Positions 1-43,247 are shown, numbered from the stretch's first letter. The stretch is DNA of 64,000 nt from Candidatus Babelota bacterium (GCA_049325595.1 JBMOLF010000012.1:12081-76080), one strand, 5' to 3'. Translations and numbers: made by a program. The notes: generated by a model from the letters alone, not told the origin.

Positions 1-105
1 CTGTTGAAGGTATATACATAGGCATATAAAAAGGAAAAAACATAGCAGATGCTTTACTAATAAATGCTAAACAAAAAAATGTAAGTAGTATTTTGTTTTT
101 AGTAT

Positions 106-699
106 TCATGTAGTTTCCTGTTTAACTGAGCCATTTTGTGTATCCATTGTAGCTTTATATTCTTCAAATTGCTGCAACATGTGTTTGTCTCTACGTATAT
201 GATGAGCCATTTTAGCGTCATGATGATTATATGAATGCCAAGCTTTAACTGCAGCATATAAACTAAATAAAGTAAACCCGGTGAAACACAATGCAGGCCA
301 TAAGTTTCCTTCTAGTTTTTTAGTTTTACATAATAATTGATAACTCCAGCAAGTAAATCCTCCCTGAAAAATTACTGCTAAAGCTGTTATATAAATCGAG
401 ATTTTTTTTATTTTCAGAATAATTTCTCGTGAATTGTTTTTGAACATTAAGCGATCGTGATGATGTTTAATAATCGCATGAAAATAATCGATGTTGGATA
501 TGACATGCGGATTATTAATAACGAAATTATCATACCTATATGTTACATTTAGCCATTGGCGATCTCTGTTTTGTGAAATAGTTGATCTAATATTGTTGAG
601 GTAATTACGTAAATTTTTAAAAGATGGTAAACAATCAGTTGTAATTGTATTTAAACCAATAGTTACACATGCAAGATAAAATAAATTTTTAATTTTCAT
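106..699 (-). CDS. Hypothetical exported/membrane protein (signal peptide plus 2 C-terminal hydrophobic segments)
   Basis: ORF 106..765. The likely start is ATG 699 (MKIKNLFYLACVTIGL), with AGGAC upstream; this start avoids overlap with the upstream AAA gene. Confidence 0.7.
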   Translation of the reverse strand: MKIKNLFYLACVTIGLNTITTDCLPSFKNLRNYLNNIRSTISQNRDRQWLNVTYRYDNFVINNPHVISNIDYFHAIIKHHHDRLMFKNNSREIILKIKKISIYITALAVIFQGGFTCWSYQLLCKTKKLEGNLWPALCFTGFTLFSLYAAVKAWHSYNHHDAKMAHHIRRDKHMLQQFEEYKATMDTQNGSVKQETT

Positions 700-718
700 A
701 AAGTCCTGTCCAAAAAAA

Positions 719-1906
719 TTATTTGTAGTAACCGACTCCAGCGCCTCCAGCTGAACCAATTGCAAAACCTGCGGCTATACCCCCGGGAACAGCTGTTGAA
801 AAAGTAGTTGCTGTAGTTGTAGCTGCAACTGTTACTCCGCCTGCAGATGCAGCAGTTGCACTTAATTTTGCTGCAACAAAAGGAAGAGCGGGAGGGAAAT
901 AAATGGCTGTTATGCCTACTCCTACCGCAGCGCCTATTATACCTCCAATTGCAGCGCAGGTTTGTATATTTTGTCTACGCAAAGTTTTTAACTGTAAATC
1001 TAATAAGTCATCTTGTTTTCTGCGGCGTGCTGCTTCTTCGCTAACATGGGCTTCATACTTTTTGTGGTTTTTAATGGCTCTATCAAGTTCGCTTTTTACT
1101 ATATTATCATCAATAGCCTGATTAGACTGTTTGATAGCTATTTCATTTACCAGTTGTTGTAAATCTGCGGAGCAAAATCCTTTAGTTTTTTTAACAACAA
1201 GATCAAGCATTTTGTCTGAAAGGTTTATTTTATCACTAGTAAAATAATGCCGTAAAATTTCTTTGCGATCAGCATCATTAGGGTTACCAATTTCTACTTC
1301 TTCCAATCGTTTACCTCTTCGGATGCGAGAATCAAGAGACTTTAAGAAATTAGTAGTTCCAATTACGGTAACCGAATTATCTTTTGGAAGACTGTCTAAT
1401 AATTTTAAAAAATGTCCAACAGTTTTTGCTTGATAATCTGCATGAGAATCATTGCTGTTATTAGTAGATCTAAGTAGGGCATCTAATTCGTCAATAACAA
1501 TAACAACAGGATGATCATATTGTGCTAAATGTTTAGCATGTTCAAATAGACGATCCAATCGTTCAGTATTGGTTCCGGTATATGGTCCTTCGACAGAACC
1601 GGTTATTCTAAGGGTAAAGGCCTGTATTTTTTTGGCAAAATCGGTTGCTATTGTTGATTTACCATTGCCAGCAGGACCATGTAAAATAAAGCCCTTGTTG
1701 CATTTGCCTGTTTTATTATTTACACAATCGACAAATTTATTAAATTCTTCAAATATTTTACCTTTAAACTCTTGTGTGTGATTTTGATAATCTGTATAGC
1801 TTTCTTCTTCCCAACATTGGTAATAATTAGGATCGTTTAAATTACCATGGCAAATCATGGTATTAGTTATAATTAAACTTAATAAAATTACTAAGCTTTT
1901 TTTCAT
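719..1906 (-). CDS. AAA+ ATPase (classic AAA clade) with signal peptide and C-terminal Gly/Ala-rich hydrophobic tail
   Basis: Walker A GPAGNGKS, Walker B VIVIDELD, sensor-1 GTTN, SRH-like LDSRIRRGKR, lid TKGFCSADL. Confidence 0.9.
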   Translation of the reverse strand: MKKSLVILLSLIITNTMICHGNLNDPNYYQCWEEESYTDYQNHTQEFKGKIFEEFNKFVDCVNNKTGKCNKGFILHGPAGNGKSTIATDFAKKIQAFTLRITGSVEGPYTGTNTERLDRLFEHAKHLAQYDHPVVIVIDELDALLRSTNNSNDSHADYQAKTVGHFLKLLDSLPKDNSVTVIGTTNFLKSLDSRIRRGKRLEEVEIGNPNDADRKEILRHYFTSDKINLSDKMLDLVVKKTKGFCSADLQQLVNEIAIKQSNQAIDDNIVKSELDRAIKNHKKYEAHVSEEAARRRKQDDLLDLQLKTLRRQNIQTCAAIGGIIGAAVGVGITAIYFPPALPFVAAKLSATAASAGGVTVAATTTATTFSTAVPGGIAAGFAIGSAGGAGVGYYK

Positions 1907-1949
1907 GGAATCTTCCTCTGCTTATGTGGATTGTTTAAAATGTTTTCAA

Positions 1950-2909
1950 TTATAAATTGTGTGGTTCAATTGTTGCACATTTTTGTGCAGTAATTTGATG
2001 TAGTGTTTTTGTATATTTTTCTTTGAGTCGGGCTTGATACTCAGCAGCTTGTTTATTTTCTTTTTCAATTTTAGTTACTTTATTAAAAGCTTCATTTAAG
2101 CTTTTTTCATTAATTGAACCATTTACTGAAGCAAATTTTGCCATTGATTTAAATGAAGCAGAGCAAAATCCTTCGCTGTTTTTTGAGATGGTATCAAATA
2201 ATTTTTCTTGAATAGTATTGGGATACTGACTTACATAGTGTTTTAAAATAGCTTTTCTACTTTCCTGGTTAGGTGATTTTATTTCTATAGTTTCTGCTCG
2301 GCCTGGTTTATTTAATTGTCCATCTATGCTGGTTATTCTATTGGTTGTCGCAATTAATATGATTTGGTTGTTTGCTGGTAAAGAATCAATGCAATTGAGT
2401 AACTTATGGTAAGTTTGAGCATATTGCATTGTGCAATCATCAAGATTACTTATAGGATTTACTACGAGGCTATCGATGTTTTCTATGGACATTACTACCG
2501 GCACGTGTTTAGATATTTGAACTGCTCTTTGAAAAAAGTGTTCCATCCGTTTAGGACCTGTTCCTGTGTAACGGCCTTCAAAGTCAGAGCTCGACATGGA
2601 AAGATAAACACCTTCAACTTCTTTAGCTACAACTTGTCCTAACATAGTTTTACCATTTCCTGGAGGTCCATAGAAAATGTAGGCAGGAGAGCAGTTACCT
2701 GTTCTCTTTTGCATACATTCAATTATTTTTTTTATTTCTTTAGGAATTTCGCCTTTAAAATTATTTAAATCTGCCTCTATGTCACGATAAGAGGTTTCTT
2801 GCCATCGGTCATAATAAGCATCTTTTTCTGTTTGAACAGGAATTTCAGAGGTATTTGCGATTTGAAAAGAGAATAAGAGTAATGCAATATATAAGTGCTT
2901 GATATTCAT
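1950..2909 (-). CDS. AAA+ ATPase with signal peptide and degenerate Walker B
   Basis: Walker A GPPGNGKT; the Walker B position reads VMSIENID; ATTNR...IDGQLNKPGR. Confidence 0.88.
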   Translation of the reverse strand: MNIKHLYIALLLFSFQIANTSEIPVQTEKDAYYDRWQETSYRDIEADLNNFKGEIPKEIKKIIECMQKRTGNCSPAYIFYGPPGNGKTMLGQVVAKEVEGVYLSMSSSDFEGRYTGTGPKRMEHFFQRAVQISKHVPVVMSIENIDSLVVNPISNLDDCTMQYAQTYHKLLNCIDSLPANNQIILIATTNRITSIDGQLNKPGRAETIEIKSPNQESRKAILKHYVSQYPNTIQEKLFDTISKNSEGFCSASFKSMAKFASVNGSINEKSLNEAFNKVTKIEKENKQAAEYQARLKEKYTKTLHQITAQKCATIEPHNL

Positions 2910-2932
2910 AAAAAAAGTATCCTTCCTTGTTG

Positions 2933-3970
2933 TTAATTAATTCTGAAAATGTATGATTTTAATTTATCTTTTGTTGTTTGAGGTAATTCTTTATATACGT
3001 GATAGGCAAGGGAAGTAACCGTTGCGGTAATGCCTATTACACTTGCCCACCAGCCAAGGCGGGCGTTTGAAAGATTAATTTTTTCTAAAGCTTCTCTTCG
3101 TTTTTCTCGTTCATCTTTTTCGTTAGTGATTTTTTGTACTTTGCGATGTGTTTTGAGTGAGTCTTGTACTATTGATTCAAAGCTTTTATGGTGTCGACTG
3201 GTAAGTTTAGCTGCGGTGACCAGAAGATCTTCTAGTGCAGCGTGGTTAAAGCCATGTGTTTTTTTTGCCAGCGCTAATTGTTTATCTTTGGGTAAATCAA
3301 ATGCTAATTTGGTGCAATAAAAATCTATAATTGCTCTGCGGCTTGCAAGATCGGGAAGCTGTACTTCAACCAGTTTGCACCGGCCAGCGCGAATAAGTGC
3401 AGGATCTAATTTTTGTTCGTGATTGGTCGCACCGATAATAATTAATGGTATTTCACTGGGGATTGACGAAATTTGTGCAATCAGTTTATCAAGGGTTCTA
3501 ATTTCGTATTGTGAGCCATTTGCTTCGGTGCTGCTGCGGGTGCCCACTGCTTCAATTTCATCAATAAAAATGATAACGGGCATAAAAACGGCTAATTCAT
3601 AGGCGCGTTTAAAAAGCCGATCAAGTCGTTCTGGTCCGGTGCCGATGTAAGGCCCTTCAAAATCAGAACCTGCTATGGCAAGACAAATACCGCCTACTTG
3701 GCCAGCTAATGCCCGAGCAAAGGTAGATTTACCTGTTCCGGGCGGACCATAAAAAATATATCCACGTTTGCCAGGGTTGGTAATGGGATCTTTAAGAAAC
3801 TCAACAATTTCTTGTAGTTCAGAAGGTAAACTTCCGGCTAAGTCGTCTAGGGTAATGTGGGAATCTGAATATTCTACCCATTTTTGATAATAAGCATCAT
3901 CTTGTGCTATGCAAAAAAAGCTAAAAAAACCGCTAAAATAAAGCAAAAATCTTAATTTTATTGCATGCAT
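2933..3970 (-). CDS. AAA+ ATPase (FtsH/Cdc48-like ATPase module, no protease domain) with signal peptide and C-terminal TM helix
   Basis: GPPGTGKS, IIFIDEIE, GATNH..LDPALIRAGR; C-terminal LGWWASVIGITATVTSLAYHVY. Confidence 0.9.
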   Translation of the reverse strand: MHAIKLRFLLYFSGFFSFFCIAQDDAYYQKWVEYSDSHITLDDLAGSLPSELQEIVEFLKDPITNPGKRGYIFYGPPGTGKSTFARALAGQVGGICLAIAGSDFEGPYIGTGPERLDRLFKRAYELAVFMPVIIFIDEIEAVGTRSSTEANGSQYEIRTLDKLIAQISSIPSEIPLIIIGATNHEQKLDPALIRAGRCKLVEVQLPDLASRRAIIDFYCTKLAFDLPKDKQLALAKKTHGFNHAALEDLLVTAAKLTSRHHKSFESIVQDSLKTHRKVQKITNEKDEREKRREALEKINLSNARLGWWASVIGITATVTSLAYHVYKELPQTTKDKLKSYIFRIN

Positions 3971-4087
3971 GTAAATGTCTCCAGAAGCTGATATACGTAA
4001 GTTGTCGAAATGAAAAAGAAGTATAGCTACTGCTCAAAAACATGCAATCTTTTTTTTAATTTAGTTATAACTGAAAAAATTAGTTTT

Positions 4088-4696
4088 TCAGGTGCCAAAG
4101 TAGCGGTCACCAAAATCACCTAAGCCCGGGACAATAAATTTTGAGCTATTGAGTTGTGAATCGGTAACACCAAGAACAAACGTAATGTAAGGGAATTTGT
4201 AGCGAATAGCATCTAGGCCTTCGGGGGCGCAAAGCATACTCACGTATATTATTTGCTGTTGGATAATGCCATTGTCTGTTAACCGTGTAAGCAATTCTAT
4301 ACCAGTACCGCCAGTTGCGATCATGGGATCAAGGATAATAATGCACTGATTTTCATGTAACTGAGGTAAATTGCAGTAATACCAATGCGCTTGCGCAGTA
4401 ATTTCATCTCTTTTTAGGCCAACAACACCAACGGTTGCCTGTGGTAGGTACTGTAAAAATATTGGTAACATTGCCATGCCAGAACGCAAAATAGGAACGA
4501 GTACTATTTCTTGGTCAAGTACGGTACCAATGGTGGGCGCATTAGGTGTTTTTATTGGTAGTTCTTTGGTTTTTAAGCGGGCTAATGTTTCGTAAGCAAG
4601 CAAATGAGAAAGTTTGTCTGCTGCGTGTCTGAATGATTGAATTGATGTTTTTTCATCCCGAAGGGTAGTTATATACAATATTTTGGGATCAATCAC
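4088..4696 (-). CDS. upp: Uracil phosphoribosyltransferase
   Basis: VPILRSG, PRPP-binding ILDPMIATGGT, C-terminal IVPGLGDFGDRYFGT. Confidence 0.97.
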   Translation of the reverse strand: MIDPKILYITTLRDEKTSIQSFRHAADKLSHLLAYETLARLKTKELPIKTPNAPTIGTVLDQEIVLVPILRSGMAMLPIFLQYLPQATVGVVGLKRDEITAQAHWYYCNLPQLHENQCIIILDPMIATGGTGIELLTRLTDNGIIQQQIIYVSMLCAPEGLDAIRYKFPYITFVLGVTDSQLNSSKFIVPGLGDFGDRYFGT

Positions 4697-4761
4697 GTGT
4701 TTTCCTTTTTATTATTTTACCGTAAAAAAGTTTACTTATGTTATTCAATATTTTTAGCGGA

Positions 4762-5508
4762 TTATTTTTTTCTGAGCGATATGGGCTTATAGAAACGAGC
4801 AACGTCAAGAAAAATAGTTCTAATAGTGGGGTTGTGATGATTTTTAATTTCTTGAAGCTCTTGACTTGAGAGTTTTTTGTATACTTCATAAGGGAAATTA
4901 TAGTGCAAGTCTTGATTGCATTTCAAAATCGTTTCAATGGTATTTACATCTTGATGTTCAAGTGCAAATTCCAATAGTGTTTGTTGGTGGGCATTTTTTA
5001 AATCTAGAACATTTATTTTTTTGCGGGCAAGTTCAAGAAGAACCGATTTAAACATATGTGTTAATGGTGCTGAACCAGAATTGGTAAGGTTTTTTTCTTG
5101 TATTTTTTGGATGATCATCCAAGGAATAGCTGTCAAGTGTTCTTTGTCGCTGATTTGTTTTATTAATTGTTTTATATATAGATCTTTATGTGGCTTTAGA
5201 TATCTTTTTTTTGAAAAATAAGCTTTGATTGCTTTTGAAAGTTTAACCCCTATTTCTTCAGCTGAGTCTGAATCTTCGTCGTCTTCAATAATCACCGTTG
5301 CTTGTTGAGATTTTGCAACCTGGTCTGATGCGTTATTTCTGTTATTAAGATGGGTAAAAGCATGTTTATTAAAATAGGCAATAATTTTACGATCATAAAA
5401 ATTATAGGGAAATGGTTCAACTGGTCTTGGCTTATTTAATTCCATGGTAAAAGATAGGCAATTAACTAACCATAAACAAATGCATAATGTTAATAAACTG
5501 TTTTTCAT
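4762..5508 (-). CDS. Exported hypothetical protein with one ankyrin-like repeat (paralog of 6219 and 7155 genes)
   Basis: Signal peptide; LKNAHQQTLLEFAL ankyrin-like motif. Confidence 0.7.
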   Translation of the reverse strand: MKNSLLTLCICLWLVNCLSFTMELNKPRPVEPFPYNFYDRKIIAYFNKHAFTHLNNRNNASDQVAKSQQATVIIEDDEDSDSAEEIGVKLSKAIKAYFSKKRYLKPHKDLYIKQLIKQISDKEHLTAIPWMIIQKIQEKNLTNSGSAPLTHMFKSVLLELARKKINVLDLKNAHQQTLLEFALEHQDVNTIETILKCNQDLHYNFPYEVYKKLSSQELQEIKNHHNPTIRTIFLDVARFYKPISLRKK

Positions 5509-5600: not shown

Positions 5601-6236
5601 ATGATATTTAACGATCGAATAGATGCAGGAAATAAACTTGCCCAGCATTTGATATCATATAAAAATAATCCTGCTGTTGTTGTTGTCGCATTGCCAAGAG
5701 GGGGTGTTATTGTAGCTAAAGAAATTGCTTCTCTATTAAATGCTCCGCTTGATATTGTAGTTACCCGAAAAATAGGCTTACCATTTATGCCCGAACTTGC
5801 TGTTGGCGCAGTAAGCCAAGATGGGTCCTATTTTTTAGATAAACAAATAATGAAGCAACTAGCAGTAAGAAAAGATGAACTTTTAGACACTATCGATCTT
5901 GAGCGAAAAGAAATTAATCGTCGTCTTAAAACCTATAAAAAAGACATGCCCGCCTTAGATGTTAAAGACAAGATAGTAATTTTAGTCGATGATGGTATTG
6001 CTACCGGTTCTACGGTGCTTGCGGCTATTCAAACCATTAAACATATGAAACCAAAAAAAATTATTCTTGCGGTACCGGTGTTACCACAAGCTGCGGTAGG
6101 TTTAATGCAAGCACAAGTTGATCAATTAGTTTATCTTCAAGCTCCTGAATATTTTGTAGGAATTAGTCAATTTTATCACGAGTTTCCCCAAATAACCGAC
6201 CAAGAGGTAATTGAAGCATTAGTCTCTAGTCGGTGA
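5601..6236 (+). CDS. Type I phosphoribosyltransferase family protein
   Basis: F.DR.DAG..LA, LPRGGV, VILVDDGIATGST, AVPV motifs. Confidence 0.92.
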   Translation: MIFNDRIDAGNKLAQHLISYKNNPAVVVVALPRGGVIVAKEIASLLNAPLDIVVTRKIGLPFMPELAVGAVSQDGSYFLDKQIMKQLAVRKDELLDTIDLERKEINRRLKTYKKDMPALDVKDKIVILVDDGIATGSTVLAAIQTIKHMKPKKIILAVPVLPQAAVGLMQAQVDQLVYLQAPEYFVGISQFYHEFPQITDQEVIEALVSSR

Positions 6237-7082
6237 TTGTTCGGATTGAAGCTGTAAAATTGTTTGTTTAAATTGAGCATTATTTGCTACAACAACAAAA
6301 GCTAAGATTTTATTGAGATACTTAGATTGTTCTTTAGTCAGATTATACGATGGAAGTAAAGTAAAATGATCAGTTCGTATGCCTTTTAGATCATTATTTA
6401 TTATTAATAAGGCTTTGAGAGCGTTATCATTTTTTGTTTGTAAGGCTAATTCAAATAACGTTTGACCATTATTATTTTTAAGAGCAAATAAATCTATATT
6501 ACACGTGAGCATTTTTCTAAAAATTGATATTGTTCTTTTTATTACTAATGCGTTAGCATGAACAGTACCAATCTTATCGATGATATCCCATGTTATCGAA
6601 CTAATAATTTTTTTATCTTTTATATTGTTTAATCGACGAATATGAAGGGTTATTTTATCTTTAAATTTCTTGCCTGAGTCGGTGATTGGCTGTTTAAAAA
6701 AGGTGTCAAATTCATCTAATATGCGAGATCTAATAGTTGCTAATTTTTTCTCATCTTTGCTAGCAAATACATTCGGTGTTGCATTAATTAAATTCTCGCT
6801 AAAATTACCGTCAAGCGGTAATGTATTACTCGCTGTATTGTTTTCTAGTGGTATAGTGAGGTGATAATTAAAAGCAGATGGAATAAAATTAGTTGTGTTA
6901 CTAAATGCGCTTTTATTTAAACGATTAAGCATCTCTTGGTCAAAGCTGGTTAAGCGAATCTTTTTTGATGCAACAAATAATTGATTAGTCTCTAATGGCC
7001 TTTTCAAGGTATTACAATCACTTGCATGGCTATTAATACCCGTAAAAAAGCCAAAAGTAACAAGTAATTGCAAGCTTTTCAT
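6219..7082 (-). CDS. Exported hypothetical protein with ankyrin-like repeat
   Basis: Likely start ATG 7082 (MKSLQLLVTFGFFTGINSHA); KNNNGQTLFELAL motif. Confidence 0.7.
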   Translation of the reverse strand: MKSLQLLVTFGFFTGINSHASDCNTLKRPLETNQLFVASKKIRLTSFDQEMLNRLNKSAFSNTTNFIPSAFNYHLTIPLENNTASNTLPLDGNFSENLINATPNVFASKDEKKLATIRSRILDEFDTFFKQPITDSGKKFKDKITLHIRRLNNIKDKKIISSITWDIIDKIGTVHANALVIKRTISIFRKMLTCNIDLFALKNNNGQTLFELALQTKNDNALKALLIINNDLKGIRTDHFTLLPSYNLTKEQSKYLNKILAFVVVANNAQFKQTILQLQSEQSPTRD

Positions 7083-7154
7083 AACTATCCCAAATAGTTG
7101 GTGTAAAAATATAATTTTGCCAGAAAGTTTATTATTTTTTGCAAATAATAACAA

Positions 7155-7862
7155 CTAATGTTTTATTTTTTTATTTCGTAAAAGACTAGCTTTTTTTTGA
7201 TAATTGTTCTTAAATGCCGAAGATGGTAAATAATTGGCGTTGAGCAGTTCAAGCATTGTTTTATCAGTTGTAAGTTGCTTGAATGAATCGAGTTGTGTAT
7301 TAGAATAACACGTAAAATTACTGTTGTTTAGAGAAAGAAGATTTGAATTAAATTGAAGACATGCTGCAACAAGCGGATGATTATTCTTTTTTATTGCATG
7401 CTCTAAAATAGTATCGCCTTCATTATTTGTTTCTTTAAGAAAATCGATTTCATAGGCAATAGATCGATTTAAAAATCGTTCGATGGTTTTTTTTGTATGC
7501 TGGTTATAATCAATAAGGTTTGTTGTTTTATCACAAATGGTCCAAAAGATTTGTTTTATAATTTTTTTATCTAGAATGAGTTCTCTTTTTTTATTATAAA
7601 CGTAATAATCAACTCTTGATGCAAGAATCCCATGTTTTTTTGGGAGTTTATGTTGCCATGATGAAAAAAAATCATCTATACGGTCATAAAGTTTCTGTAT
7701 AGTTTGTTCTTGGCTATTGTCCATGCTGGTTTTTGCCAGACAACAAAGCCCTAAAGCTGCATCTTCAATAGCTTTTGGTAGGGTAATAATATGAGGAATT
7801 GCATATCGCTCTGCTCCATAAATTGATATGAAAAATAATAATAATGTTGTGTATAGAAACAT
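7155..7862 (-). CDS. Exported hypothetical protein with ankyrin-like repeat
   Basis: Signal peptide MFLYTTLLLFFISIYG; TNNEGDTILEHAI motif. Confidence 0.7.
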   Translation of the reverse strand: MFLYTTLLLFFISIYGAERYAIPHIITLPKAIEDAALGLCCLAKTSMDNSQEQTIQKLYDRIDDFFSSWQHKLPKKHGILASRVDYYVYNKKRELILDKKIIKQIFWTICDKTTNLIDYNQHTKKTIERFLNRSIAYEIDFLKETNNEGDTILEHAIKKNNHPLVAACLQFNSNLLSLNNSNFTCYSNTQLDSFKQLTTDKTMLELLNANYLPSSAFKNNYQKKASLLRNKKIKH

Positions 7863-39983: not shown

Positions 39984-40469
39984 TTACAAAATATCTTTCC
40001 AATAGGGATCGGGCTTATCTTCTTGATGTTCTCTGGTAATAATATCTTTAGCAGTGATATTATTTTTAAGGCTAAGACCGCTTTGAGTTTTACCAAAGAT
40101 TCCTTTTTGTGGACGTAGTTCCTTTTTTTCCCATGCAAAATATAATGTTCGGTTAGAAGAAGAAGCAAAGGTATACGACTTTATTGCTTGCCGCGCGGTT
40201 GCAGGATTTTTGTACTGAACAATTAATCGTAAAAAGCCTTGCTCAATATCTACTGTTTTTTGAATTGAAGGAATAACTTTTCCTTTTTTTGCAGGAACCG
40301 TAATGCTTTGGAAATAAGTTTTATTAATTACCGGATCAATTAGTGAGATGATAATTGGATAGTCATCGTGATTACGGATCTCAAAATTAATGCCTTGTTT
40401 ATATTCAGCTTCGGTCAAAGCATTAAGTTTGAAAGAAAATAAGGTCAAAATAAATATTATTTTTTTCAT
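39984..40469 (-). CDS. Small exported protein, FEIRNHD family paralog 1
   Basis: Signal peptide; FEIRNHD and FAWE...LRPQKG...TQSGLSL.NN.T motifs. Confidence 0.8.
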   Translation of the reverse strand: MKKIIFILTLFSFKLNALTEAEYKQGINFEIRNHDDYPIIISLIDPVINKTYFQSITVPAKKGKVIPSIQKTVDIEQGFLRLIVQYKNPATARQAIKSYTFASSSNRTLYFAWEKKELRPQKGIFGKTQSGLSLKNNITAKDIITREHQEDKPDPYWKDIL

Positions 40470-40474
40470 ACTCT

Positions 40475-40981
40475 TTATTTTCGATTTAATACATAGTCAT
40501 TTTGTTGCATATTCCAAATCAAAATATCAAATGGTCGTACATTAAGATTTAAGCTAAGGCCTGATTGGGTTTGACCATTTTTTCCTGTTTGCGGTCTTAA
40601 TTCATTATTTTCCCATGCAACAAACACAGTTTTATTTGGTGCAAAGGTGTAATGTTTAAAAGCTGGTTTATTATTTTTATCAGTATATTCTACTGTTAAA
40701 AATAATGGTTCTGTAATATCTAATCTTTTAGATAAGCTTTGAACTTTGCCAAATATTTTTTTCCCCGGTATTTCTGCTTTCCAAATTATTGCATCTCTCG
40801 GACTTAAGATAAATAAAGGATCAGCGACATTAACAAGAGGGGTATCTGTTGGTTTTAATGTGATAATAATGGGCTTAGAATCATGATTTCTAATTTCAAA
40901 TCCTATGTCTTGAGGATTTTGCCATTCTATTGCTTGTATAGATAAAACCATTAATAAACTAGATAATAAATAGAGCTTCAT
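40475..40981 (-). CDS. Small exported protein, FEIRNHD family paralog 2
   Basis: WQNPQDIGFEIRNHD; FVAWENNELRPQTG...TQSGLSL. Confidence 0.8.
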   Translation of the reverse strand: MKLYLLSSLLMVLSIQAIEWQNPQDIGFEIRNHDSKPIIITLKPTDTPLVNVADPLFILSPRDAIIWKAEIPGKKIFGKVQSLSKRLDITEPLFLTVEYTDKNNKPAFKHYTFAPNKTVFVAWENNELRPQTGKNGQTQSGLSLNLNVRPFDILIWNMQQNDYVLNRK

Positions 40982-40996
40982 TTTTTTCCCTTTTTT

Positions 40997-41482
40997 TTAA
41001 TCTTGAGGCACAAATATTGGTAAATCATTTTGAGTTACATTATTGTTCAGGCTCCAACCACTTTGAGAAGTGCGTTGAAAAACTCCTCTTCCTTTTTGGG
41101 GACGCAAAGAACCATTTTCCCAAGCAACAAAAATAGTTTTACCTGGTTGTATAAGATAAAGCCGTTGTTCTGCTTGTTGTGTTCGTGAATTTGTATAATC
41201 AACGACAAGACCAAAAATTCCTTCGTGAATGTCTAATGGATGCTGAAAATGAGCAATTCTGGTTCCTTGTTTTGCAGGAACTACAATATTTTTAAATAAA
41301 TGTGCTACGGGCGTAACATCATTAGGATTTTCTGGATTTTCGGCAACTAATTGTTGTAATGATACCGTAATTGGATATCGATCATGATTTCTAATTTCAA
41401 AACCTATGTCTTGAGGATTTTGCCATGAACGGCCGAATGAAAGATTAGTGAGCAATAGAGTTAAAATAAAAATTTTTTTCAT
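40997..41482 (-). CDS. Small exported protein, FEIRNHD family paralog 3
   Basis: WQNPQDIGFEIRNHD; FVAWENGSLRPQKG...SQSGWSLNNNVT. Confidence 0.8.
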   Translation of the reverse strand: MKKIFILTLLLTNLSFGRSWQNPQDIGFEIRNHDRYPITVSLQQLVAENPENPNDVTPVAHLFKNIVVPAKQGTRIAHFQHPLDIHEGIFGLVVDYTNSRTQQAEQRLYLIQPGKTIFVAWENGSLRPQKGRGVFQRTSQSGWSLNNNVTQNDLPIFVPQD

Positions 41483-41497
41483 ATGAGTACTTTCTAA

Positions 41498-41956
41498 TTA
41501 TTGAATTTTTTTAATACCGGCTTGGGTAATATTATTTTCTAAGCTAAAGCCAGATTGGGAAGTTTTAGAGAAAATACCGGTTCCTTTTTGTGGACGCAAA
41601 CTGTTATTTTCCCAAGCTAAGAATAATTTTCTGCTTGGTGAAAGTTGGTACAGAGCGCGACGAGGTTTACCCTTATCGCTATAAGTAATTTGTATAATAT
41701 AACCAGGAACTGTTGGATCTATATCATAATTAGTATAAGCAGTAATTTTAGATCCTTTTTTGCCAGATATTTCCTGATTATTAACCAAAATATAATCAGG
41801 TTTCATAGTTCCTAGCTGCCATAGGGTAATTGCAATAGGATTTATATCATGGTTTCGTATTTCTAAGCGTGGCTCGATCATTCCATAATCAGCCTTTAGT
41901 AAAGCATTACAGCTCATCAATGCCAATAAAGTAATTATTATTTTATGTATCTTCAT
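41498..41956 (-). CDS. Small exported protein, FEIRNHD family paralog 4
   Basis: LEIRNHD; FLAWENNSLRPQKG...SQSGFSLENNIT. Confidence 0.8.
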   Translation of the reverse strand: MKIHKIIITLLALMSCNALLKADYGMIEPRLEIRNHDINPIAITLWQLGTMKPDYILVNNQEISGKKGSKITAYTNYDIDPTVPGYIIQITYSDKGKPRRALYQLSPSRKLFLAWENNSLRPQKGTGIFSKTSQSGFSLENNITQAGIKKIQ

Positions 41957-41976
41957 TGCTTACTCTCCTTTTATTA

Positions 41977-42780
41977 TTATTTTTTTTTAGCTTTTTTACT
42001 TTTTTTTGTAGTTGATAAACTTGATTGCAATGCAGCAACTAAAGTGTGATCTTCTTTAGGTTTTGAAATTTTCTTTTTAGCAGCAGTTATTTTTTTTGTT
42101 TTTTTACCTGCTTGAGCAGTTTGAATAGCTTTTATTAATTTTGCTATAAAGGTATTTTTATAACCGCTAATATCAAAAGAATTAGTGGATAACTGAGTTA
42201 TTAATTGTTGTGCTAGGGTTAATTCTTTACTTCTGGCTTCCAGTTTTGATTTTTTTATTTCTGGAATTGGCTTTATCTCATAAGCAAAATTTAAAGTTGA
42301 TAATAATAATATATTTTCATGGGCACTCAAAGCACAGACATGATCACGTTCGTGCATTACAAAATGTCCAATGGCGACTTTATTAGTTTTTATCATAGCA
42401 TGTAACAGAACCCCATAAGCTTTTTCATGCTTGGCAGTAGGCACTATGTAATAATGATTTTCAAGGTAAATAAAGGGAATTAATGAATGGTCTATAAATT
42501 GATCAACATCAATAGTATCAGTTTTCTCAGGTTTTAGCTTTTTTAAATTTTCTTGCGTGATTATAAAATAACTTCCATCTTTTAATTTAATTCCTTTTAC
42601 TATCTCATCCCAATTAACTTCTTTATTGCAATGCTCACACCACCGTTTGTATTTCACCGGTTCTTTGCATTTGGCGCATAATAACTGAAAACCAGGAGCA
42701 TGAGGACGTACTGCGGTGTATAACCGTACTGGTATGCTTACTAAGCCAAATGAGATAGATCCTTCCCAAATAGATTTCAT
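41977..42780 (-). CDS. ku: Non-homologous end-joining DNA end-binding protein Ku
   Basis: IWEGSISFGLVSIPVRLY, EIVKG, YY..P...AY..L, Y.N.F...L, L.AALQ.SL, basic C-tail. Confidence 0.95.
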   Translation of the reverse strand: MKSIWEGSISFGLVSIPVRLYTAVRPHAPGFQLLCAKCKEPVKYKRWCEHCNKEVNWDEIVKGIKLKDGSYFIITQENLKKLKPEKTDTIDVDQFIDHSLIPFIYLENHYYIVPTAKHEKAYGVLLHAMIKTNKVAIGHFVMHERDHVCALSAHENILLLSTLNFAYEIKPIPEIKKSKLEARSKELTLAQQLITQLSTNSFDISGYKNTFIAKLIKAIQTAQAGKKTKKITAAKKKISKPKEDHTLVAALQSSLSTTKKSKKAKKK

Positions 42781-42785
42781 AATAG

Positions 42786-43247
42786 CTACCTTACTGGATT
42801 ACGAACTTCACGTACATCAGCCATTGTTACATTGCGTGACAAATTAAAACCTGAATCAGAAACGCGAGCAGGACAAATACCTTTTCCTCGTTGAGGTCGT
42901 ATTCTTTCATCTTCCCATGTAATAAAAATAGTTTTTCCAGGTTTTACTTGATAGCGCTTGAGAGTGGATATTCCTTTTTTAGTTTTATAATGAATGCGTA
43001 GTTCATACTGAGATTTAATATCTAATTGCTTTGAAAAACTTTCTTGATTTGGTGCAAGACGCTGTTTTTGTATAAGTAGCGCTTTAGTTGGTTTTATTTG
43101 ATACAAAGAAAAGTAAATGTCTCCTGGACCTTTATTTTTAAACTCAAATCCTATGTCTTCAGGAGATTTCCAAATTTTGCCAGCAACCGCGGTAATTGAA
43201 TTGCTCAAATTAATGAGTAAAAATAAGAGTATCATTGGATACTTCAT
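42786..43247 (-). CDS. Small exported protein, FEIRNHD family paralog 5
   Basis: WKSPEDIGFEFKN; PGKTIFITWEDERIRPQRG...SDSGFNLSRNVT. Confidence 0.8.
   Translation of the reverse strand: MKYPMILLFLLINLSNSITAVAGKIWKSPEDIGFEFKNKGPGDIYFSLYQIKPTKALLIQKQRLAPNQESFSKQLDIKSQYELRIHYKTKKGISTLKRYQVKPGKTIFITWEDERIRPQRGKGICPARVSDSGFNLSRNVTMADVREVRNPVR

Follow-up and report, generated by a model that had tools for sequence, protein, structure and literature searches.

Tandem AAA ATPases with signal-like N-termini and a recurring small two-helix protein family in a Candidatus Babelota genome

Three AAA ATPase genes, here called A, B and C, stand in tandem at positions 719 to 3,970 of a 64,000-nucleotide stretch of DNA from a Candidatus Babelota bacterium (GCA_049325595.1, JBMOLF010000012.1:12081-76080; the whole stretch is referred to below as the window). 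The products carry N-termini that look like Sec signal peptides, and the locus continues into a row of genes for small proteins with two hydrophobic helices. We favour, at a probability of about 0.45, the interpretation that the three motors are exported and consume host ATP, and that they are probably directed at the host and tethered to a membrane. AAA unfoldases are classically machines of the cytosol, and no bacterium is known to use them past the cytoplasmic membrane.

In this scenario, lineage-specific classic AAA ATPases derived from FtsH would have lost the protease together with the membrane and periplasmic N-terminus of FtsH; A, B and C would be synthesised with cleavable Sec signal peptides and would leave the cytoplasm, and ATP of the host cell would power them outside it. 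They would most likely serve as host-directed, membrane-tethered unfoldases or extractases, acting jointly with the small two-helix membrane proteins encoded directly downstream. Export itself, the final location, the formation of rings and the partnership with the small proteins are the parts of this scenario that we infer.

FtsH-type ATPases with signal-like N-termini

Judged by sequence, A, B and C are FtsH-type AAA modules without the protease. Each matches the Pfam AAA family PF00004 (A, E-value 6.9e-23, 82 bits; B, 3.2e-22, 79.8 bits; C, 2.7e-29, 102.7 bits), above the curated cut-off of 21.2 bits in all three. Among the NCBIfam models, those for FtsH, PAN, CDC48 and CdvC match all three proteins at scores far under their curated cut-offs; FtsH_fam (TIGR01241), the best model for C, gave 152.7 bits for C, 94.1 for B and 89.5 for A, none of which reaches the cut-off of 600 bits. 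The Pfam lists of the three proteins hold neither the M41 protease domain (PF01434) nor the FtsH extracytoplasmic domain (PF06480). A single short N-terminal hydrophobic segment is present, as against the two helices that surround the extracytoplasmic domain of FtsH, and the proteins terminate 60-150 residues past the AAA lid.

Structural comparisons point in the same direction. When solved structures were searched with C, the top rows were two-domain VAT/p97 chains whose scores are summed over both domains, while among single-domain relatives the ATPase domains of i-AAA and FtsH scored best (about 122 bits). For C, a 14-sequence family alignment gave an AlphaFold2 model (mean predicted local distance difference test score, pLDDT, 82.7) in which the alpha/beta plus lid fold leads into a single long helix at residues 264-328, and its first ranks in Foldseek were FtsH, the i-AAA ATPase domain, the Ycf2-FtsHi subunits and PAN.

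All three open reading frames (ORFs) lie head to tail with gaps of 23 nt (C to B) and 43 nt (B to A), and a fourth ORF begins 19 nt after A. The three co-oriented classic-clade AAA ATPases that a preliminary description had placed at 719-3970 are thus all found there and are encoded by the minus strand. Scanning positions 1-4800 for promoters and terminators returned 21 and 3 sites against 17.6 and 3.7 expected, and was uninformative.

For the N-termini we used a crude, self-written, rule-based caller, which considers the net charge of the n-region, how hydrophobic the core is, how far the sequence runs without a charge and whether small residues occupy positions -3/-1, and which applies a strict and a loose set of rules. 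A, B and C are all called signal-peptide-like, in line with the Sec-like signal previously ascribed to each. Eighteen family sequences were drawn from this genome (G000), from G001, a sister genome, and from metagenomic proteins; 17 of them pass the loose rules and 10 the strict ones, and in all 18 the charge of the n-region is zero or above and that of the 15 residues past the h-region zero or below. The h-regions of the trio are short, with uncharged stretches of 16-21 residues; diverged orthologs of C retain small residues at the expected place (CIA, CVA, CTA, CNA, SHG, VIA, MYS); and between signal and AAA domain no second hydrophobic segment is seen, either in the trio or in the family. 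By the usual rules, a positive n-region, a short core, small residues at -3/-1 and the lack of a second helix indicate a cleavable Sec signal and an AAA domain delivered across the membrane. The N-termini of the family thus obey the grammar of Sec signal peptides, and export of the trio is likely. A signal peptidase I is encoded in the genome (TIGR02227 match at G000:C1, 106.9 bits summed).

Directly behind the hydrophobic N-termini stand the strings DPNYYQCWEEES, DAYYDRWQETS and DAYYQKWVEYS, just as had been described, with a Trp that is invariant across the family and a Glu that is nearly so. The pattern [YFW][YF]xxWx[ED] occurs in only 3 of the 1221 ORFs of the genome, all three being the trio, and it is therefore a feature of the family; YYxxWxE as a general post-signal sorting motif was rejected on this ground.

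How unusual these N-termini are depends on the genomic background. The genome comprises 1.286 Mb in 24 contigs and is 95% complete; the window has about 34% G+C, and the nearest named proteins to its PheT are those of Candidatus Dependentiae (65%) and of Babeliales (about 49%). Strict signal-like N-termini are found in 451 of 1221 ORFs (37%), compared with 17 of 1893 internal-Met controls, in keeping with Chromulinavorax, another member of the Dependentiae, for which signal peptides are reported on 44% of coding sequences (PMC6561590). At such a rate, three signal-bearing genes in a row are unremarkable, and what deserves attention is which proteins carry the signal. The 22 matches to PF00004 at E <= 1e-5 correspond to 21 ORFs, ten of which pass the strict rules, namely the trio and ORFs of 928, 436, 349, 441, 430, 317 and 218 aa. 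An eleventh, paralog D (contig C9), scores as positive only when read from an internal Met, as well as in its ortholog P0154, and the FtsH of the genome is loose-positive by virtue of its first membrane helix. The remaining nine are signal-negative and, from their length and N-terminus, are taken to be housekeeping proteins (Lon-, ClpB-, RuvB-, DnaX-, DnaA-like and so on). Two of the strict-positive ORFs, those of 441 and 349 aa, are themselves in tandem (L128 3956-6376; G000:C1 115955-118351), the 349-aa protein ending in a hydrophobic segment and a basic tail.

The preliminary description had also proposed a phylogeny against FtsH, Cdc48 and Msp1. We built a quick maximum-likelihood tree from 56 AAA-domain rows; in it, the 18 rows of the family form a branch of their own, split from the 38 others (FtsH, p97-like and other short Dependentiae AAA proteins) with full support (SH-like approximate likelihood ratio test, SH-aLRT, 100); one very long row, L026_392aa, which attaches to A, should be disregarded. 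Within the family, B clusters with P0140, a 419-aa protein of G001 and P0128 (SH-aLRT 99). The distribution of the family is narrow. Among 61 related genomes strong matches occur in G000 and G001 only, and a search of 5.8 billion clusters yielded seven close orthologs of C (53-71% identity, 322-348 aa), which share its N-terminus, the motif and a WW-led tail. When 1.84 billion representatives were searched with a profile, just eight of the best 150 were full-length proteins with a single domain, the others being multi-domain AAA proteins that score by summation. A search for related loci in a collection of genome contigs, with C as query, was set aside: the best matches were 33-39% identical, none belonged to the family, and FtsH dominated through the Walker B pattern.

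Table 1. Coordinates of the AAA genes, their sequence features and the small-protein genes. Positions are those of the window except where a contig is named.
Feature	Position	Strand	Description
First small protein	106-699	minus	197 aa; signal-like N-terminus, RxWLN and DY(Y/F)H, two hydrophobic helices
Other five small proteins	G000:C12 8981-12189 (L040)		just outside the window, beyond its start
AAA ATPase A	719-1906	minus	395 aa; Walker A GPAGNGKS, Walker B VIDELD, IRRGKR, pore loop Y-T-G
A residues 317-395	722-958	minus	hydrophobic Gly/Ala/Thr-rich tail; first segment KD19 2.09; common to P0128 of the sister genome
A residues 1-21	1844-1906	minus	predicted signal peptide; MKK / SLVILLSLIITNTMIC, predicted cut after CHG
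AAA ATPase B	1950-2909	minus	319 aa; intact Walker A GPPGNGKT, SIENID, LNKPGR, without hydrophobic tail
B residues 142-146	2472-2486	minus	IENID, degenerate Walker B
B residues 1-21	2847-2909	minus	predicted signal peptide; less canonical cut NTS/E; G001 paralogs LSA/E, FSA/E
AAA ATPase C	2933-3970	minus	345 aa; Walker A GPPGTGKS, Walker B FIDEIE, sensor-1 TN, IRAGR, pore loop Y-I-G
C residues 307-326	2993-3052	minus	WWASVIGITATVTSLAYHVY, weak hydrophobic segment, KD19 1.20; then Lys-rich 19-residue tail
C residues 25-35	3866-3898	minus	family motif DAYYQKWVEYS, right after predicted cut
C residues 1-22	3905-3970	minus	predicted signal peptide (rule-based); MHAIKLR / FLLYFSGFFSFFCIA, predicted cut after CIA

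Catalytic motifs, tails and small partner proteins

A and C look catalytically competent: Walker A, Walker B, the sensor-1 Asn (TTN in A, ATN in C), both arginines of the second region of homology (SRH) and the aromatic pore loop are all complete. The pore loops read VEGPYTGT in A, FEGRYTGT in B and FEGPYIGT in C, aligned with KYYG/KWVG of VAT, and the common form (E)G(P/R)Y(T/I)GT given in the preliminary description holds for all three translations. So does its account of the middle gene, with IEN instead of DE and KPGR at the arginine finger: B keeps Walker A and the sensor-1 TTN, Glu-Asn replaces the Asp-Glu of Walker B (SIENID), and Lys replaces the first SRH arginine (LNKPGR). In AAA enzymes, loss of the Walker B Glu stops hydrolysis and leaves nucleotide binding. 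B probably binds ATP but cannot hydrolyse it, and it may join mixed rings; it may have become an inactive subunit, or be a copy in the course of degeneration. The closest relatives of B, P0140 and the 419-aa protein of G001, retain DE as well as a C-terminal hydrophobic tail, and on this comparison the dead Walker B is lineage-specific. A second Walker-B-degenerate member is P0128 of G001 (IEH), which has also lost the sensor-1 Asn and carries Gln for the first arginine. Such members are, from their motifs, present in both genomes, with a polytomy in the tree that is compatible with one origin or two.

A further sequence character of the family is a Cys-x7-Cys pair just upstream of Walker A, present in nine of ten A-, B- and D-type members (A residues 61-69, about 1700-1726; B residues 65-73, about 2691-2717). 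Both cysteines are jointly absent from P0128, and the C-type members are without the pair. We considered the pair as a mark of an oxidising compartment and dropped the idea, as no DsbA-type family (PF01323, PF13462) was found.

Tail hydrophobicity was taken as the best 19-residue Kyte-Doolittle window (KD19). That two of the three proteins end in hydrophobic tails, as previously described, is upheld, with a Gly/Ala-rich tail in A (2.09) and a single weaker segment in C (1.20); B has none (0.59), and the D types are likewise tail-less. Across the family, the values range from 2.04 to 2.09 for A-type tails and from 1.12 to 1.52 for C-type tails, and the weak hydrophobicity of the latter fits an escape from the bacterial inner membrane. 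As the anchor is C-terminal and stands behind the long helix, the exit face of the ring rather than its entry face would be turned to the membrane, an orientation opposite to that of FtsH or Msp1; this suggestion draws on the AlphaFold2 model and on ring geometry as generally understood.

The preliminary description overlooked the larger locus, which includes six small membrane-protein genes, the existence of further modules of this kind elsewhere in the genome, and the earlier publication of a comparable proposal of secreted AAA proteins for Babela. The six genes come directly after the trio, stand in tandem downstream of A and encode proteins of 183-203 aa. In each of these, a signal-like N-terminus is combined with a helical part that contains RxWLN and DY(Y/F)H, with two hydrophobic helices and with a conserved C-terminal helix, RRDxxMLxQFEEYKA. 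Pfam assigned no family to the six or to four more distant ones. An AlphaFold2 model of a small protein is all-helical (mean pLDDT 78.7), with the highest confidence on both sides of the hydrophobic hairpin; Foldseek found no match for it in the PDB at E <= 0.001, and the ESM Atlas gave no usable match for the one small protein submitted (top feature score 0.81, structure TM <=0.51).

The pairing of the two families recurs. On contig C23, three diverged small proteins stand in a row behind the 430-aa signal-bearing AAA protein; on contig C11, one diverged small protein precedes the 436-aa signal-bearing AAA protein; and on contig C9, the gene after paralog D encodes a similarly built protein of 169 aa that was missed by the small-family profile. 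Together with the trio locus on contig C12, a signal-bearing AAA protein is paired with a small signal-bearing two-helix protein at four loci of the genome. The same holds for G001, where both families are interleaved beside pheT in the order AAA, small, AAA, small, AAA, AAA, small, small. When the profile of the small family was run against the 61 related genomes, strong matches came only from G000 and G001, and weak ones from three others. A complex prediction for A (residues 22-312) and the adjacent small protein (residues 24-197), each with its alignment, scored 0.00 and gave no answer.

Toxin-like genes were observed beside these modules. Just before the window start, at L040 1640-8953 (G000:C12), a gene encodes a 1167-aa signal-bearing protein whose C-terminal end is a bacterial EndoU nuclease domain (PF14436, E 3e-14); behind it stand, in tandem, eight paralogs of about 145 aa, signal-less and resembling an array of immunity genes, and this array adjoins the small-protein array on the opposite strand. 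At L127 3356-10816 (G000:C23 17855-25315), a 975-aa EndoU-domain protein (E 3.5e-14) is followed by two ORFs, the 430-aa signal-bearing AAA protein and the three small proteins. A 777-aa protein with a similar end also lies beside the AAA cluster of G001, and the adjacency of toxin-like gene and AAA module is thus repeated.

Where the motors may act

The preliminary description had noted that the periplasm lacks ATP. The genome encodes two tandem TLC-family ATP/ADP translocases (G000:C23 8283-11204), which imply that host ATP must reach the bacterial envelope, and the objection that there is no ATP outside the cytoplasm is thereby removed. Three things speak for a host-directed role, namely the lineage context, the narrow distribution in multiple copies, and tails that are weak in the C types and absent from the B and D types. 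For Babela massiliensis, secretion into the amoeba has been proposed for ankyrin, ubiquitin-system and AAA-Ulp1 proteins that bear signals, and type II is the only secretion system detected (PMC4378268). Two secretins are encoded in the genome studied here. The preliminary description had proposed host-delivered effectors anchored in the parasite vacuole or an organelle membrane, possibly as a heterohexamer that includes an inactive subunit; this is supported in part, export being likely, and host delivery, such anchoring and a mixed ring being conjectural.

Several points weigh against this interpretation. Substrates of type II secretion are normally soluble. Transfer would be expected to halt in the bacterial inner membrane at the A-type tails (KD19 2.04-2.09), and likewise at the paired helices of the small proteins. 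Other short FtsH-like AAA proteins of the Dependentiae (L013, L014, L037) have a signal-like segment followed by a second membrane helix, which puts the AAA domain in the cytoplasm and makes an FtsH-like, cytoplasm-facing ancestry plausible. No DsbA-type oxidase (PF01323, PF13462) was found in a genome that is 95% complete. The flanks of the tail segment of C are, by eye, similarly net positive and do not indicate an orientation; a positive-inside reading of this tail was dropped for that reason. Finally, all signal calls come from our own crude caller and should be interpreted with caution.

It is rather unlikely, in our view, that the proteins are Sec-exported and then kept with the bacterium as a periplasm-facing envelope machine, A and C being tail-anchored in the inner membrane and B soluble in the periplasm, where host ATP that crosses the outer membrane towards the translocases would power the remodelling or extraction of envelope or exported proteins, together with the small two-transmembrane-helix proteins. 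The signal-peptide evidence applies to this arrangement as it does to the host-directed one, A-type tails of the hydrophobicity given above would be stop-transfer anchors, and the small partners have two hydrophobic helices and an all-helical model (mean pLDDT 78.7). The translocase genes imply that ATP passes through the periplasm, and an assembled hexameric ring could not traverse a secretin. The C-type tails are nevertheless weak and those of the B and D types missing, and presence in few close genomes, in multiple copies, fits host-interaction genes better than an envelope function. To our knowledge, moreover, no ATP-driven AAA machine is known in a bacterial periplasm, and our literature searches returned no description of one or of the present family.

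Slightly less probable is that A, B and C are cytoplasm-facing, FtsH-like paralogs, in which the N-terminal segment is an uncleaved anchor or is not used and the AAA domain acts in the cytoplasm as a protease-less quality-control or regulatory ATPase. The AAA module is indeed FtsH-like, L013, L014 and L037 show that an FtsH topology exists among related Dependentiae proteins, and signal-like N-termini are so common in the genome (37%) that some may not function; for phytoplasma FtsH, too, topology predictions differ between programs (PMC6981957). Against this stand the features of the N-termini themselves: the family is without a second hydrophobic helix ahead of the AAA domain, the h-regions of the trio are short (16-21 uncharged residues), positive charge before and acidic charge after the h-region in 18 of 18 members favours an N-in/C-out insertion, and small -3/-1 residues are retained in diverged orthologs. 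The nine AAA ORFs taken as housekeeping have no such N-termini.

A second strain allows the integrity of the locus to be judged. A 158-kb contig of run X2 spans 969-4100 at 97% nucleotide identity, with 92 differences and only two indels, both single-base and intergenic. Its B protein is identical at 309 of 319 residues, with the same IEN and the same stop, and its C protein at 334 of 345. Among the 40 of 89 differences that were listed, 22 nucleotide changes in B lead to 10 residue changes, and 15 in A to 2. We considered from this that B evolves faster than its neighbours and dropped the idea in view of the whole-protein identities of B and C. It is highly improbable that the trio, or B at the least, remains from an expansion of the gene family, is being lost and has no present function: the missing Walker B Asp-Glu, first SRH arginine and C-terminal tail of B, kept by its closest relatives, and the listed changes would fit decay, but three intact frames in tight spacing (gaps of 23, 43 and 19 nt), indels confined to the spaces between genes, a B protein that keeps its stop and IEN and does not diverge faster than C, and the existence of P0128 (IEH) in G001, which suggests that inactive members are tolerated or used, all speak against it.

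Neighbouring genes, known systems and biological meaning

Other signal-bearing genes were seen in the window. Three proteins without a Pfam family (4762-5508, 6219-7154 and 7155-7862, minus strand) flank a uracil phosphoribosyltransferase gene and a second phosphoribosyltransferase gene; a similar helical motif recurs, by eye, in the C-terminal half of each (LLEFALEH, LFELALQT and ILEHAIKK), look-alikes occur in the same place in G001, and they may be one more secreted family. At 39984-43247 (minus strand), five tandem signal-bearing paralogs of 152-168 aa with WQNPQDIGFEIRNHD-like starts are interrupted by a 267-aa ORF, the N-terminus of which presumably resembles bacterial Ku. An ATP-dependent DNA ligase gene is found at L040 493-1539 (Pfam).

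The closest published parallel comes from the same phylum. In Babela massiliensis, an expanded family of signal-peptide-bearing AAA proteins is fused to a permuted Ulp1-like peptidase and neighbours a family whose members are predicted to be membrane proteins (Pagnier et al., 2015; PMC4378268). Signal plus AAA domain, multiple copies and a position beside membrane-protein genes are thus common to that description and to the trio; the comparison is one of published description and not of sequence homology of the AAA or membrane-protein families. The Babela proteins carry a permuted Ulp1-like (C48) peptidase, whereas A and C have C-terminal hydrophobic tails instead, and the Pfam lists of A, B, C and D contain no peptidase family, although a permuted, diverged domain could escape Pfam.

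FtsH and i-AAA (Yme1) are the best matches in sequence and fold and share the classic-clade motifs and the aromatic pore loop, and i-AAA faces a non-cytosolic compartment supplied with ATP via porins; they differ from the trio in having the M41 protease and the FtsH extracellular domain, and in that the anchor of FtsH is N-terminal and that of the trio C-terminal. An outward-facing position of phytoplasma FtsH/AAA+ proteins is said to have been predicted by Seemuller and colleagues in 2013. Phytoplasmas are, like the organism studied here, genome-reduced and obligately intracellular, and have multiplied FtsH-type or membrane AAA+ ATPases, some of them predicted to face the host and discussed as host-interaction factors (PMC6981957). 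They have one membrane, uncleaved anchors, conflicting topology predictions and many copies with a protease, as opposed to a diderm envelope, cleavable-looking signals and protease-less proteins here.

Further likenesses come from eukaryotes and Chlamydia. Msp1/ATAD1 is a minimal, membrane-anchored classic AAA ring without N-domain or protease; its anchor is an N-terminal helix and its entry face is turned to the membrane, whereas in the trio the anchor is C-terminal behind helix 264-328 and the ring would be inverted. An Msp1-type N-terminal anchor with a cytosolic ring is not what the trio displays, given an N-terminus with signal grammar and a hydrophobic anchor at the other end. The Ycf2-FtsHi import motor and Plasmodium PTEX HSP101 are FtsH-derived or Clp-type AAA motors, partly with inactive subunits, that drive translocation at a membrane, and HSP101 bears a signal peptide and acts in the parasitophorous vacuole; beyond the AAA fold they share no homology with the trio, for which no translocon partner was identified. 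The small proteins recall the Inc proteins of chlamydiae in having two closely spaced hydrophobic helices with a short loop and helical soluble flanks, but Inc proteins depend on type III secretion and have no Sec signal, and the small proteins have no sequence or fold match in Pfam, the ESM Atlas or Foldseek.

A more specific proposal, and an improbable one in our estimate, is that the rings work beyond the inner membrane, either at the interface between host and parasite or in the periplasm, and that, fuelled by host ATP and tethered C-terminally, they push or pull proteins across a membrane together with the small proteins. Such a device would be a bacterial functional counterpart of PTEX HSP101 or of the Ycf2-FtsHi motor, and the first AAA machine to operate beyond the bacterial cytoplasm.

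Secreted AAA proteins were already proposed for this phylum in 2015 (PMC4378268), and what is gained here is therefore a new architecture and a gene-pair rule rather than a new principle. The trio would seem to be an architectural variant of the exported AAA ATPases already suspected in the Dependentiae, in which the recurring small-membrane-protein partner appears as the new element; the repeated pairing of an AAA protein with a small two-helix protein amounts to a concrete two-component module. Dependentiae import host ATP, and over one third of their proteins carry export signals. Should their many signal-bearing AAA paralogs indeed act within the periplasm or the host, they would form a novel class of energy-dependent effectors or envelope machines, and would offer a handle on how unculturable parasites that are poor in secretion systems remodel the membranes and organelles of their hosts.

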